A stretch of DNA of 64,000 bases. Origin: a virus. The notes under the pieces were generated by a model. That model was not told the origin of the DNA and made no database searches. It was given only the letters and a program-made list of their open reading frames with translations. This document shows positions 23,136-26,563 of this stretch, piece by piece (position 1 is the first letter of the stretch; the number at the start of each line of letters is the position of its first letter). The stretch is taken from IMG/VR virus record IMGVR_UViG_3300010278_000003. One strand, given 5' to 3'. The position numbers and the translations under genes are program-made.

Positions 23136-23157
23136 CGTTGTTATAAAATGGTATATT
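23129..23157 (+). promoter_or_regulatory. Sigma-A-type promoter for the intron cargo, overlapping the 3' splice site
   Basis: TTGACA (23129-23134), 17-nt spacer ending in an extended-10 TG, TATATT (23152-23157); RBS AGGAGG and ATG 23204 follow. Confidence 0.7.
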
Positions 23158-23203
23158 TTAGTTAATCACTTGAGTTAAATAACCTAAATTAGGAGGGAAT
23201 ATT

Positions 23204-23743
23204 ATGGATGATATCACATACAAATTTGCACGTCATGGAAAAATATTTAAATGTCCACACTGCTACGAAACAGGTGGCAATTTAGAGGAATTTAGTAAAA
23301 CTGCCTCTAAGTTAAATCCGAATCATAGTGAAAAATTAAAAGAATTCGCAAAAGGTTATTTAGGATTAAGTTTAGATCCACCATTTACAGATACCTGTCC
23401 GTATTGTGGAACTAAATTAATTGACACAGGAATCTCTTTTGATGATGCTATTACAATAAGAGATTTTAGCGATTTCAACAAAGACATATTTAATATGATG
23501 ATTGATTTACATCAAAAAGATTTAATAGAATATACAGCTAAAATCAATATGATGAAAGCAAACATAGAAAAAACAAAGATGATTAAAAAAGAAATTGACA
23601 CAACTCCCAAATGCCCCAAATGCGGTTCTACAGCTATCACTACAGGAGCGAGAGGTGCAAACTGGGCATGGGGATTTATAGGAGCAAGTCAAACGGTTAA
23701 CAGATGTGGTAACTGTGGTTATACTTGGAAACCAAAGAAGTGA
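23204..23743 (+). CDS. Intron cargo: zinc-ribbon protein
   Basis: CPHC, CPYCG, PKCPKCGS...RCGNCGYTW. Confidence 0.8.
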   Translation: MDDITYKFARHGKIFKCPHCYETGGNLEEFSKTASKLNPNHSEKLKEFAKGYLGLSLDPPFTDTCPYCGTKLIDTGISFDDAITIRDFSDFNKDIFNMMIDLHQKDLIEYTAKINMMKANIEKTKMIKKEIDTTPKCPKCGSTAITTGARGANWAWGFIGASQTVNRCGNCGYTWKPKK

Positions 23744-23784
23744 GAAGGGTGTAATACAAAACACATTAATCTATAAAAGGAGAT

Positions 23785-24153
23785 TTGGTTATGAAAAACA
23801 CACAAAATATTGCATCTCTCATAGCTCGGCTTGAGTACGAGATTGGAAGAGAATGCTATAATCCAAATTCATATGATGGATATACGGGAGTAGAAGGTCG
23901 TGGATATAGATATCCAGTAAAAGTTTATCAAAACGAAAATATGAGAACATATCGTTATATGATATCAGAAATTTCTCCATCAGAAATTCATACAATGAAG
24001 TATGTGTTCGGATCTAATCATTTATTTATTGGCAAGGGAATATATAATATTCTCAACACACTTGAAAGAAGATATGGTTTAGATTTTAACGAAATGGAAG
24101 AAAACTTAAGCAATAAACCAAAAGATGATATTCCGACTACTCGTTTCATTTAA
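23785..24153 (+). CDS. Intron cargo: hypothetical protein (ATG start probably 23791)
   Basis: RBS AAAGGAG; 120-aa ORF. Confidence 0.7.
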   Translation: MVMKNTQNIASLIARLEYEIGRECYNPNSYDGYTGVEGRGYRYPVKVYQNENMRTYRYMISEISPSEIHTMKYVFGSNHLFIGKGIYNILNTLERRYGLDFNEMEENLSNKPKDDIPTTRFI

Positions 24154-24196
24154 ATAATGATAAAATATTCCTAACAAATATAAAGGAGAGACTATA

Positions 24197-24475
24197 ATGT
24201 ATACAACAGATTTCAGCATATTCACTCAAATGGTAAATATGGCGAAGCAGAAGAATTTAGATTATATTATTATGTATTCATATCACTCAATTAGTGGTGG
24301 CAAATATTCACATTCATATTCTTTTGTATTATCAACAAATCTATTTACTGTTACCTTTAAAAAGAAATTTGAAGAAGGGAATGATAATGCTGTACGAGGA
24401 TTTATTCAACATAATGATTGTGTCAAACTTAATTGTGATATGATAATTGAAAAAGATTGTGTTGAATTACATTAA
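24197..24475 (+). CDS. Intron cargo: hypothetical protein
   Basis: RBS AAAGGAG; stop overlaps the convergent ORF. Confidence 0.65.
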   Translation: MYTTDFSIFTQMVNMAKQKNLDYIIMYSYHSISGGKYSHSYSFVLSTNLFTVTFKKKFEEGNDNAVRGFIQHNDCVKLNCDMIIEKDCVELH

Positions 24476-24705
24476 AAATGTCTATCTTTTAATAATTCCA
24501 AAAGACGAATTTTTAAATCGTATTCATCCCACTCAAGTTCAGAATACATCTTTAAGGCTTCACTAATTATGAATTCGTCAGATTCAGTTTCTTCCGAATG
24601 ATTGAATCTGGCGAGTAGTTTCTGATATTCTACAATTTTATCTATATCAGGAAAAATTTCATTATGTGTTAATTTTTTTGATTGTGAATTTATTTTATCT
24701 ATCAA
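24472..24705 (-). CDS. Intron cargo: hypothetical protein
   Basis: RBS GAGGTG, TTG start. Confidence 0.55.
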   Translation of the reverse strand: MIDKINSQSKKLTHNEIFPDIDKIVEYQKLLARFNHSEETESDEFIISEALKMYSELEWDEYDLKIRLLELLKDRHF

Positions 24706-24759
24706 ATGATTTTCACCTCGATTTTATTATTATAAGTATTCATACAGGGAGGAATACAT

Positions 24760-25047
24760 ATGAAAAAATTATATTGTCCATTTACTAATGGTAGCTGTAA
24801 TAACGATTGTATTATGAATAATAATTGTTTTGAAGAAAATAATTCTCAAAATTGTATGTTACTTAAATCTGTCGAGTCAATTATATCTTTTGTTAACGGA
24901 CTTTCGGTTGTAAATAAAGACACTGAAAAATACTTAAAAAGTATAAGTGACAATACCGGGGACGATCACTCATACTCCTTTGAAATTAACAACAAACTTG
25001 ATTCGATTAAGAATCTTTTAGAGGAGATTATTCAGAACGAACAATAA
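24760..25047 (+). CDS. Intron cargo: protein with Cys-rich N-terminus (CPF...C...C)
   Basis: RBS GGGAGG. Confidence 0.65.
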   Translation: MKKLYCPFTNGSCNNDCIMNNNCFEENNSQNCMLLKSVESIISFVNGLSVVNKDTEKYLKSISDNTGDDHSYSFEINNKLDSIKNLLEEIIQNEQ

Positions 25048-25240
25048 GATTCTTAATCTTATTTTCAACAATTCTAAGTAAACCAAAAGCCTGATTGTAT
25101 GTTAAATTATTTGAGGTTATTTCTGAAATTATTTTATCTGACAATGGGGAAATAACCTCTTTTTCAAAATTTTCGTTTTCAGTTTGTTTTTTAATTATTT
25201 CTTTAATACTTTCATTCATTTCTTTAATATTTTCGTACAT
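25028..25240 (-). CDS. Intron cargo: hypothetical protein
   Basis: Leader GGATTGAAAGGAAAA. Confidence 0.6.
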   Translation of the reverse strand: MYENIKEMNESIKEIIKKQTENENFEKEVISPLSDKIISEITSNNLTYNQAFGLLRIVENKIKNLIVRSE

Positions 25241-25354
25241 TTTATTTTTCCTTTCAATCCGTAGTTAAATATTTTTACTTAAAAATAACTCATACATAGT
25301 ATTGCAGTACGTACCAAAGTGTGAGCCTAATATTTTAGAAAGAGTGATAAAATA

Positions 25355-25561
25355 ATGGGATTATTTACCGCTATTATAATTTTTATTATTTTAGCAATCG
25401 CCGCAGCAAGTCACGGCGATTTTTCTGGTATGCAAATAATAGGAAAAATTGTAGGAGTTATAGCAATGATTGTTATAGTAGCTGTTCTACTAATGAATCC
25501 AGTTTTGTTGGTTGCTGCACTTATAATTGTTGCTATAATAGCGTTAACCCATAAGAGCTAA
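25355..25561 (+). CDS. Intron cargo: small membrane protein
   Basis: Almost entirely hydrophobic, 2-3 TM segments. Confidence 0.65.
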   Translation: MGLFTAIIIFIILAIAAASHGDFSGMQIIGKIVGVIAMIVIVAVLLMNPVLLVAALIIVAIIALTHKS

Positions 25562-25752
25562 TGACAATAAAAAAGTGGGGCGATACCCACTTCTTTACAC
25601 ATGTCTATTAACAAACAGACAATATTATTCCGTTTCGAATACTTTCGGATAATTTTTTCAGCATCTTCTTTCGATGACAAATTATATTCTTTTAAAATAT
25701 CCGAATAATATGTGTCACATTTAATAACAAGTAACTTAATATAATCTTTCAT
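25558..25752 (-). CDS. Intron cargo: hypothetical protein
   Basis: RBS AAGGGGTG. Confidence 0.5.
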   Translation of the reverse strand: MKDYIKLLVIKCDTYYSDILKEYNLSSKEDAEKIIRKYSKRNNIVCLLIDMCKEVGIAPLFYCH

Positions 25753-25780
25753 AATTACACCCCTTATTGTGTATAATAAT

Positions 25781-25981
25781 TTAGTATGGGAAAATGTCTT
25801 CTATTCGTAAATTTAAAGCTTTGCAAATTTTAATAACAGTACTAAATCTTGGATCTGAATATCCATCTTCTATCAAACTGATACTTGTTTTATTTACTTT
25901 TGCTTTTCTTTCCAATTCACGCAAAGATATTTTCCGTTCTTCTCTAATTCTTTTAAGATTGTTTTTCATATGCATCACCAA
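25781..25981 (-). CDS. Intron cargo: XRE-family HTH regulator
   Basis: LKRIREERKISLRELERKAKVNKTSISLIEDG..DPRFSTVIKICKAL. Confidence 0.85.
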   Translation of the reverse strand: MVMHMKNNLKRIREERKISLRELERKAKVNKTSISLIEDGYSDPRFSTVIKICKALNLRIEDIFPY

Positions 25982-26563
25982 TAATATGATGTGTTACATC
26001 TAAAAGAATTATTTATACATATATTACTACATACAATGGGTTATGTATTAGCCATATGGAAAAATTTTTAATTAATTTAACTTTCGACAAAATCATATTT
26101 TATTTTATAACCTTTTATAACCTATAACATTCCCAAGTTATTATAGGCTTGTGTGATATGTACTAAGCAGGGCAGTAGAGTAATACTCTAAGTTCGTTTC
26201 CCTGTTCGCTTCTTGCAGCCTTTCGCCACAGTAACGGACTGTATGTTGCAATCTATAAAAATAGACCGTATCTTGTCAGCCTCTCGCACGATATAACATC
26301 TTGAAATCACACTTTCAATTAACATTTATACCGTGTCGGAACTACCATTTTCGTATCAATAATCTATGATACTTAGTTGTGACACACCCACATGGAGCTT
26401 TTATTGCAGTGTCATCAATACCTATAAATAGGCTTACGGCTTCCTCCGATATTCGACATATTTAGGATTTCTCCAAGGATTATGTCTACTTGATGAACGA
26501 CCATCTTGTAGAACACCCACTATTATGCATAGTAGGGGGTTTGTAACCATGACTTGTAACTAT

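Follow-up and report, generated by a model that had tools for sequence, protein, structure and literature searches.

Group I introns of phages are usually described as a ribozyme plus one homing endonuclease gene, and the classical examples, in T4 td, nrdB and sunY and in the SPO1 DNA polymerase gene, carry a single sense-strand endonuclease gene in a peripheral loop. In IStrons, such as CdISt1 of Clostridioides difficile, a group I intron is fused to an IS200/IS605-type element, with the ribozyme core at the 5′ end, foreign genes near the 3′ end and the 3′ splice site beyond the insert. Within tape measure protein (TMP) genes, group I introns are established in Bacillus cereus-group prophages (TMP-IVS1, IVS2 and IVS3), where one gene can hold several of them and one site can be occupied by different introns; they are short IA1/IA2 introns whose coding content does not go beyond an endonuclease gene, complete or degenerate (Tourasse and Kolsto 2008, PMC2504315). 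The hexacoral mitochondrial ND5-717 intron is reported to be removed by RNA back-splicing and has splice sites many kilobases apart that enclose several functional genes unrelated to mobility (PMC6545197). Here, we analysed a 64,000-nt stretch of DNA from an uncultured human-gut phage (IMG/VR virus record IMGVR_UViG_3300010278_000003; hereafter the window), in which comparative sequence analysis points to a group I intron at 26569-23136 of the minus strand that is probably spliced in cis from the TMP gene.

With the classical phage introns, the window intron shares its location in an essential gene and a coding insert outside the catalytic core, but it has no nuclease domain, and its conserved gene encodes an antisense double zinc ribbon with its own promoter. 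The cargo of IStrons is a transposon whose transposase or TnpB moves the whole element; neither hallmark was found at the 3′ end of the window intron, where there was only a sub-threshold similarity to the Cas12f TNB zinc ribbon. As in the B. cereus group, the intron lies inside a phage TMP gene, and several introns per gene occur among its relatives (L002, L005 and L007, see below); here too, one site can harbour different ribozymes. Unlike the B. cereus introns, it lacks P7.1/P7.2 and has a P5abc-like extension and far longer exon pairings, and introns of the window type carry 1-12 unrelated genes on both strands. The ND5-717 intron is organellar and encloses core mitochondrial genes on the same strand with fixed content (PMC6545197). 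Introns of the window type carry accessory cargo instead, part of which is antisense and which differs from one close relative to the next. In the literature, we found no phage group I intron described with a defence-like multi-gene island that varies and uses both strands. While group I introns in TMP genes are already known, the multi-gene, partly antisense cargo is new.

The TMP gene of the window is present on the minus strand in two pieces, as the earlier note had read from the open reading frames (ORFs). The upstream ORF (26523-30431, start GTG at 30431) encodes 1302 aa, with a PF10145/TP901-type tape-measure domain near its 3′ end; it terminates in a Gly-rich hydrophobic stretch (...GTIISGVAGAKGYGLTYSYKSWLQTPYYA*), its read-through C-terminus being ...TYSYKSWLQTPYYA. 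The downstream frame is open from 23157 to its end at 16396, with no ATG, GTG or TTG for 107 codons, until ATG 22836, and with no ribosome-binding site at its opening. Predicted exon 1 spans 26570-30431, its end at C26570 being set by the alignment of the P1 column, and predicted exon 2 spans 16396-23135 and opens with UUGUCAAUCAUGGC, which pairs with the internal guide as P10; the reading phase is 1, and C + UU gives Leu at the joint. The uninterrupted frames are 1302 codons for exon 1 and 2246 codons for exon 2. Between the two pieces, nine ORFs of 64-179 aa were found (four on the TMP strand and five opposite), in line with the nine genes counted earlier. The stretch 26100-26570 contains no ORF, and the G+C content is 0.37-0.41 over 26100-26600 versus 0.21-0.37 across the remaining cargo (23800-26100).

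With 420 residues from the beginning of the exon-2 frame as the query, 11 relatives were found, all of them separate C-terminal-half proteins of 1475-2146 aa. The contigs examined among them (L001-L007) share one plan, in which the N-terminal part of the TMP is followed by about 450-500 nt without ORF, variable genes, an antisense zinc-ribbon gene and the C-terminal part of the TMP. The gap is exactly 1000 nt in L003 and L006, where it contains only the zinc-ribbon gene, and 9003 nt in L005, so that intron sizes across the relatives range from 1.0 to 9.0 kb and cargo from 1 to about 12 genes. A search with a P4-P5 20-mer yielded six further human-gut contigs (L008-L013), whose cores are about 70% identical to that of the window and lie at the same TMP codon. 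Altogether, eight related human-gut contigs carry a homologous RNA of about 470 nt at this codon. Distant unsplit TMPs (2537 aa), with 48% identity to the last 140 residues of exon 1, pass through the homologous ...MKGYSVF... site and continue for about 2000 residues, and a motif ...G-A-K-x-x-[G/S] closes exon 1 in every lineage. Other searches were unproductive: no match among 50,697 phage records came from megablast with the region, identities in tblastn with the TMP domain stayed below 31%, scans of viral contigs with a protein pattern and a 24-mer returned nothing, and a scan of genome contigs with a P9.1 19-mer returned chance matches only.

To the RNA that follows exon 1 we fitted the canonical group I fold, with the P3/P7 pseudoknot and a P/Q-like P4 register added, on an alignment (A2) of nine sequences, and controls were made by sliding the pairing partners by 1-3 columns and by 500 shuffles. 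The fold comprised 135 pairs with 98.3% of cells paired, and 38 pairs had changed on both sides, versus 1-6 in the slid controls, with none of the 500 shuffles reaching the observed values; these pair counts depend on A2, in which the number of independent lineages is only three to four, yet the changes fall at diagnostic positions (see below). When the introns of the window, L003 and L007 were aligned by themselves with MAFFT, their divergence made the alignment unusable. Unaided, RNAalifold returned P1, P2, P2.1, P4/P5 with three P5 extensions, P6, P7, P8, a GAAA-capped P9, P9.1 and P9.2. The coordinates given in the earlier note for P4, P5, P6, J6/7, the P7 bulged A, P8 and the GAAA-capped P9 were thereby recovered independently, by RNAalifold and by pair counts on nine homologues. 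A long-range CUAA/UUAG helix also proposed by RNAalifold never varies and was left out of the model.

The predicted intron is 3434 nt long, with U26569 as its first base and the omega-G at 23136 as its last, and its elements are all on the minus strand. The P2 hairpin (26516-26536) and the P2.1 hairpin (26485-26512), which together occupy 26485-26536 and were obtained by RNAalifold and pair counts, precede the 5′ strand of P3 (UGUC, 26455-26458), J3/4 (GAAUA) and the P4-P5 domain with P5a, P5b and P5c (in all 26336-26458). P4 pairs UCGGAG (26444-26449) with UUCCGA (26336-26341), and P6/P6a occupies 26287-26335 (RNAalifold and pair counts). The catalytic centre (26236-26286) includes J6/7 (CGA), J7/3, the 3′ strand of P3 and J8/7; within it, P7 is formed by G-A(bulge)-GGCUG (26277-26283) and CAGUCC (26236-26241), and P8 lies at 26249-26268. 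The last part of the core (26119-26235) contains the 5′ strand of P9.0 (GUU, 26233-26235), P9 with a GAAA(G) loop (26212-26231), P9.1 (26168-26204) and P9.2 (26119-26148), whose loop includes CUUGGG (26132-26137).

Checked on A2, the core helices P3 to P9 stand in the canonical order, and the P3/P7 pseudoknot encloses P8. P4-P6, P7 and P8 are 100% paired with compensatory changes. In P3, UGUC pairs with GAUA (26269-26272) in the window and UGCC with GGCA in relatives (U-A to C-G), with 4 of 4 positions paired. In P7, GGCUG/CAGUC of the window is replaced by GGGUG/CACUC in relatives, with double changes in two of its six pairs, one of them the pair next to the bulged A (G-C in the window, C-G in relatives). 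A guanosine-binding-type P7 is thus predicted in both (window G-A-GGCUG/CAGUC-C, relatives C-A-GGGUG/CACUC-G), and we take its bulged A to correspond to the Tetrahymena C262-A263-G264 pattern. The junction sequences are similar to the P/Q/R/S elements (GAAUA-UCGGAG-GAA, AG-UUCCGA-CACG, CGA-GAGGCUG-ACAAG and GCAACAUA-CAGUCC). P8, P5c, P9, P9.1 and P9.2 have been rewritten in sequence between lineages with their hairpins kept.

The 5′ splice site is placed by the alignment after C26570, six nucleotides upstream of U26564. The earlier note had cut at U26564; we rejected this site because its column is A in four sequences (L005, L008, L010 and L013), and the guide-paired column is that of C26570. 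Another candidate, GGU U|AU at 26576 paired with UCAUGG, was unsupported in L005. The internal guide occupies 26537-26553, with the P10 strand directly 5′ of, and contiguous with, the P1 strand: ACCC (26540-26537) pairs with GGGC of exon 1 (26573-26570) as P1, in which A26540 faces C26570, and GUCAUGGUUACAA (26553-26541) pairs with exon 2 as P10. By comparison, exon 1 is also held by a second helix, in which exon bases -13 to -5 (AAGGUUAUG, 26573-26581) pair with the intron segment that follows P2.1 (CAUAAUCCU, 26476-26484); of its nine pairs, five are double-changed, and 95% of cells are paired. At the cleavage site itself, seven sequences pair the last exon base with its guide partner as U.G (alignment pair 15-50); the window and L001 have C.A there, both sides having changed.

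The 3′ end reads [A/G]CG|[U/A]UGU in every sequence, with G as the last intron base in all. Since homology and synonymous third-position changes (GTC/GTA, AAT/AAC, GGT/GGA) begin directly after G23136 (VNH...), the 3′ splice site is placed behind this G, and the omega-G 23136 and the GUU/AAC P9.0 pairing named in the earlier note coincide with this independently recovered end. The 3′ tail (23136-23174) contains CUCAAG (23169-23174), a clamp strand (23140-23151), the AAC of P9.0 (23137-23139) and the omega-G. P9.0 is GUU/AAC in the window and GC/GC elsewhere (U-A to C-G). The 9-nt loop of P9.2 pairs, over 6-7 bp, with the tail 36-43 nt before the omega-G: the loop is CUUGGG in the window and CUUGGAA in others, and the tail strands are CUCAAG in the window, CCCAAG in L001, UUCCAAG in L005, L009 and L010 and UCCAAG in L011, while the divergent L003 and L021 lineage has UUCCAAA/UUUGGAA at these positions. 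In the window and L001 only, an additional 11-bp clamp joins GUUAUAAAAGG (26111-26121) to CC(A)UUUUAUAAC (23140-23151); it was not found in the other lineages.

P10 engages the first 13-17 nt of exon 2 at all six loci whose sequence extends to the 3′ end, and tracks the coding sequence, as illustrated by the window (GUCAUGGUUACAA with UUGU(C)AAUCAUGGC) and L009 (UUAUCAA(U)AGUUUACGA with UUGUAAACUUUGAUGA). At four of the six loci (L005, L009, L010 and L011), the start of exon 2 forms the best guide duplex among 5,500-13,000 windows; its rank is within roughly the top 0.3% for the window and L001. In addition, guide column 49 changes in step with both the first base of the intron and that of exon 2 (intron/exon 2/guide U/U/A in most sequences, A/A/U in L005), as expected of an exchange between P1 and P10. 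Each exon is thereby held by at least about 13 bp, which may be an adaptation to the long time that passes after the core is made until the 3′ splice site has been transcribed.

These pairings bear on whether the TMP halves are simply made as separate proteins, the RNA being a relic or having another role such as 3′-end processing or stabilisation of the exon-1 message. Gene callers annotate two proteins in every relative, some relatives have a TTG or ATG near the start of exon 2, and the window has no match to the Rfam group I model RF00028, which speaks for separate synthesis. Yet the window frame offers no start for 107 codons and no ribosome-binding site, the guide covaries with an exon-2 start 1-9 kb away, P9.0 and the omega-G are kept, and the U.G to C.A double change keeps the wobble geometry; without exon ligation, the guide covariation and the kept 3′ elements would have no explanation. 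We therefore regard separate synthesis as unlikely.

The predicted junctions are in frame in all lineages and follow a motif GAKGx[GR]-[FLY]-VN..., with F, L or Y at the joint: GAKGYG-L-VNHGENGW in the window, GAKGLG-Y-VNHDSDNGW in L005, GAKGHR-F-VNFDENGK in L009, GAKGKG-F-VNSDKNGN in L010 and ..GHR-F-ATIDENNK in L011. In the window, the junction RNA (26570|23135) would be ...GGUUAUGGGC joined to UUGUCAAUCAUGG..., with the junction peptide ...GYGLVNHGENGW... and the spanning peptide ...GAKGYGLVNHGENGW.... The spliced protein is predicted to be 3533 aa rather than the 3535 aa calculated earlier, since the earlier junction was off by 6 nt and 2 aa.

Because the RNA covariation is hard to explain unless exon 1, core, tail and exon 2 meet in a single RNA structure, ribozyme-mediated joining of the exons, whether in cis or in trans, appears very likely from the comparative data. 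The complete ribozyme from P1 to P9.2, of about 460 nt, comes directly behind exon 1 and is succeeded by about 2.9 kb of unrelated genes and then by a tail of about 40 nt that folds back on the core. In the mechanism that we propose, late transcription would read through the cargo, after which the tail and exon 2 could dock; guanosine would attack after C26570, and the exons would be ligated in frame (...GAKGYG-L-VNHGENGW...) to give the 3533-aa TMP. Promoters of its own would drive the cargo on both strands, and phages could exchange it while the TMP gene stays unharmed, since splicing takes the cargo out of the RNA. The central proposal of the earlier note, that a group I intron here carries several genes and no recognisable homing endonuclease, is strongly supported by the compensatory changes in P1, P3, P7, P9.0, P10 and the loop-tail pairing.

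Several observations weigh against splicing of the window intron. Both P1 proper and P3 are short, at 4 bp each. The U.G wobble, near-universal at group I 5′ splice sites, is absent from the window and replaced by C26570.A26540; to our knowledge, activity of a C.A cleavage-site pair is known only from in-vitro mutant work, and no paper on natural C.A cleavage sites was found in the literature. An intron live in relatives might therefore be dead in the window, through the C at its cleavage site or its cargo load, leaving a defective TMP in a decaying prophage, and the metagenomic origin of the contig and the departure of C26570 from the consensus U would fit this. Against it, the guide base has changed too (G to A), giving an isosteric C.A pair, a state that L001, which differs elsewhere, also has; since both sides of the pair changed, the wobble geometry may be kept. 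Moreover, both exons retain long intact frames (1302 and 2246 codons), and all other pairings are intact. We consider a dead intron very unlikely.

The covariance model also gave a negative result. The earlier note had asked for such a search and had named the lack of a hit as a finding that would speak against the intron. RF00028, whose gathering score is 50 bits, gave no match on the window (searched as 64 kb, 4.2 kb and 0.53 kb/531 nt) at the gathering score or at E<=10, and none on the orthologous L003 intron in a small search at E<=10. Independent comparative evidence was therefore sought. The model scored 23.8 bits on the L007 intron at the window's position and 17.7 bits, with poor 3′ alignment, on the L002 intron at that position, which carries textbook AAUCCGCAGC, GUUCAACGACUACA and GAUAGUCU elements despite this low score; an unrelated intron in the PF10145 domain of L007 reached 42 bits (E 2e-7). 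As the relatives' introns all score below gathering, RF00028 appears insensitive for the introns of this gene, and the standard Rfam model misses this intron lineage.

Within the cargo (25402-25421, minus strand) lies a perfect 10-bp complement, CCGUGACUUG, to the guide segment CAAGUCAUGG; its duplex is stronger than that of the exon-2 start (-18.7 versus -12.7 kcal/mol) and could compete with P10, although about 9,000 windows are enough for a match of this size to arise by chance. TMP transcription is opposed by five of the nine cargo genes and by a strong promoter. On the TMP strand, a terminator-like hairpin (GUGGG-UAUCGC-CCCAC, then UUUUUUAU; 25570-25600) lies inside the end of ORF 25558-25752; it has a weak STnc290-like Rfam match (19.7 bits) and is not listed by a consensus terminator scan. 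Because cargo transcription opposes the TMP gene and this hairpin with its U-run lies on the TMP strand, read-through of the 3.4 kb is an assumption.

An alternative is trans-splicing, in which exon 1 and the core on one transcript and the tail and exon 2 on another would be joined by P10, the L9.2-tail pairing and the clamp. Split introns need just such unusually long pairings (13-17-bp P10, 9+4-bp exon-1 pairing, 6-7-bp loop-tail helix and 11-bp clamp), and the opposing transcription units, the strong antisense promoter at the 3′ splice site and intron lengths of up to 9 kb also speak for this route, by which the cargo would not have to be transcribed in one piece. Yet no good sense promoter lies just upstream of the tail (best 9 of 12 matches), the tail starts inside or beside the 5′ region of the antisense gene, and the 1.0-kb form in L003 and L006 keeps the pairings though transcribing it from one end to the other poses no difficulty. 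It also counts against this route that, as far as we know, trans-splicing by natural group I introns is confined to organelles. We judge trans-splicing improbable and regard cis-splicing of one long transcript as the better account.

The cargo lies between P9.2 and the 3′ tail, within 23204-26100. Its minus-strand ORFs are 25781-25981, 25558-25752, 25028-25240 and 24472-24705, and its plus-strand ORFs are 25355-25561, 24760-25047, 24197-24475, 23785-24153 and 23204-23743. The sole confident domain among them is an XRE-type helix-turn-helix (25781-25981), and the remaining eight window ORFs gave no significant family match. Searches of the window cargo with Pfam, PHROGs and PADLOC revealed no LAGLIDADG, GIY-YIG, HNH, His-Cys, PD-(D/E)XK or other nuclease domain, and the larger cargo ORFs of relatives contained no homing endonuclease domain in Pfam. 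The relatives' cargo includes DUF2513, NYN, Bro-N/ANT, a PemK/MazF-like toxin domain and a RelA-SpoT domain.

A large insert with its own regulator and a short AACGT repeat near both ends could also be imagined to leave the gene by site-specific excision at the DNA level, like developmentally excised elements. No recombinase or transposase domain was found in any scanned cargo, however, a 5-nt repeat is expected by chance, and excision would leave a conserved, covarying ribozyme with guide pairings unexplained. Excision of the DNA therefore seems extremely improbable, and removal of the cargo by RNA splicing remains the preferred reading.

The comparison of relatives that the earlier note had called for revealed a conserved core with variable cargo. 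Between the window and L001, the exon ends, core, zinc-ribbon gene and tail are 97-98% identical, while in the interior they differ by the insertion of one 785-nt block and by a stretch where other genes, 0.8 kb in length, take the place of 1.6 kb. A core of the L003 type (82% identical) belongs to a 1.0-kb intron in L003 and is followed by an insert of about 7.5 kb before exon 2 in L021. It stands at even chances, in our view, that the intron acts as a heritable cargo bay across a gut-phage clade, in which defence, toxin-antitoxin and regulator genes of either strand are swapped within an essential virion gene at no coding cost. The part of this reading that has the two-part grip on exon 1, the 13-17-bp P10 and the loop-tail pairing allow the splice sites to lie 1-9 kb apart seems to us just as evenly balanced. 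The earlier picture of the intron as a neutral landing pad for accessory genes may hold, but not all intron content is free cargo, because the antisense zinc-ribbon gene is conserved in nearly every examined relative.

This antisense gene (23204-23743, plus strand; 179 aa) encodes a protein with two CxxC...CxxC ribbons and a C-terminal motif CPKCGS..I.T...G....GFIGA....N.C..CGY.WKP, and is always the last gene before the 3′ tail. It adjoins the 3′ splice site in nearly every examined relative, with its start codon 54-70 nt from that site in most loci; the L007 counterpart lacks the C-terminal motif. Its sigma-70-like promoter (23129-23157, plus strand; TTGACA-17-TATATT with a TG-extended -10, 11 of 12 matches) is the best such site in the region and overlaps exon-2 codons, the omega-G and the tail. 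The family comprises more than 225 proteins, and the further members examined again lie between TMP halves. The proteins (127-179 aa) have no RuvC domain, and their similarity to the Cas12f TNB zinc ribbon is sub-threshold (20.3 bits versus a cut-off of 26.3, and 16.4 bits in another scan). Profile, structure and fold searches returned zinc ribbons only, and the structural model was of low confidence (pLDDT 66.6). A homing endonuclease was considered for this protein and is probably not what it is, given zinc-ribbon similarities only, no nuclease fold and a weak model. More speculatively, it might take part in mobility or link the transcription of the cargo to splicing: the gene may couple cargo expression to TMP splicing, for example early versus late, or represent a new intron-associated factor.

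In terms of significance, the ribozyme seems to shelter islands of up to about 12 genes, including MazF/PemK-like, RelA-SpoT-like, NYN, Bro/ANT and XRE genes, within a structural gene that is essential, and near-identical phages differ in these islands. Should splicing be confirmed, group I introns of bacterial viruses would extend to 9 kb, a natural C.A cleavage-site pair would be documented, and design rules would be available for RNAs that pair splice sites over very long distances by means of a second exon-1 helix, a long P10 and contact between a loop and the tail. The calling of TMP genes of this clade as two or three separate proteins would then be a systematic annotation error, by which intron-borne accessory islands are missed.

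A second interruption was found inside the PF10145 domain in L002 (4600-6577), L005 (227-674) and L007 (5419-5870). These introns are unrelated to that of the window, the L007 copy being the one with the 42-bit RF00028 score, and window exon 1 has no interruption in this domain. The PF10145-domain intron of L002 encodes a 427-aa DUF4379 protein.

Some further features of the cargo islands were observed. Three convergent gene pairs lie in 24197-25752 of the window, namely 25558-25752(-)/25355-25561(+), 25028-25240(-)/24760-25047(+) and 24472-24705(-)/24197-24475(+), and their 3′ ends overlap by 4, 20 and 4 nt, respectively, leaving no room for intergenic terminators. The 68-aa product of ORF 25355-25561 (plus strand), which has no family match, consists by eye almost entirely of hydrophobic segments and could be a small membrane protein, such as a holin- or toxin-like protein or an exclusion factor. 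In L003 (9420-9450), the stretch that separates the core from the end of the zinc-ribbon gene holds a hairpin with an A-run on one side and a U-run on the other (AAAAAAGUAGGUUGCCCUACUUUUAA), probably a terminator for the antisense transcript and a weaker one for the TMP-sense transcript. The 9-kb intron of L005 holds a second antisense zinc-ribbon gene (6122-6601), followed by its own tail motif UUCCAAG. There, at 6590-6720, a pseudo-3′ splice site GGCG|AUGUAAAU is followed by 16 exon-2-like codons (VNYNEDNSWTIIPSF*); this looks like the scar of recombination with another phage's intron, and the site could serve as a decoy or an alternative 3′ splice site.

Upstream of the TMP gene in L003 (1-2083), tail genes show weak matches to the SPbeta YomW, YomV and YomU families, which hints that the clade is distantly SPbeta-like. 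The source contig of the window is 224 kb, indicating a large phage or a phage-rich element. Elsewhere in the window, a skipping-rope RNA motif (RF02924, 73.7 bits) was detected at 2821-2901 on the minus strand, and four tRNA genes are present (46824-46973, 53449-53529, 58336-58407).

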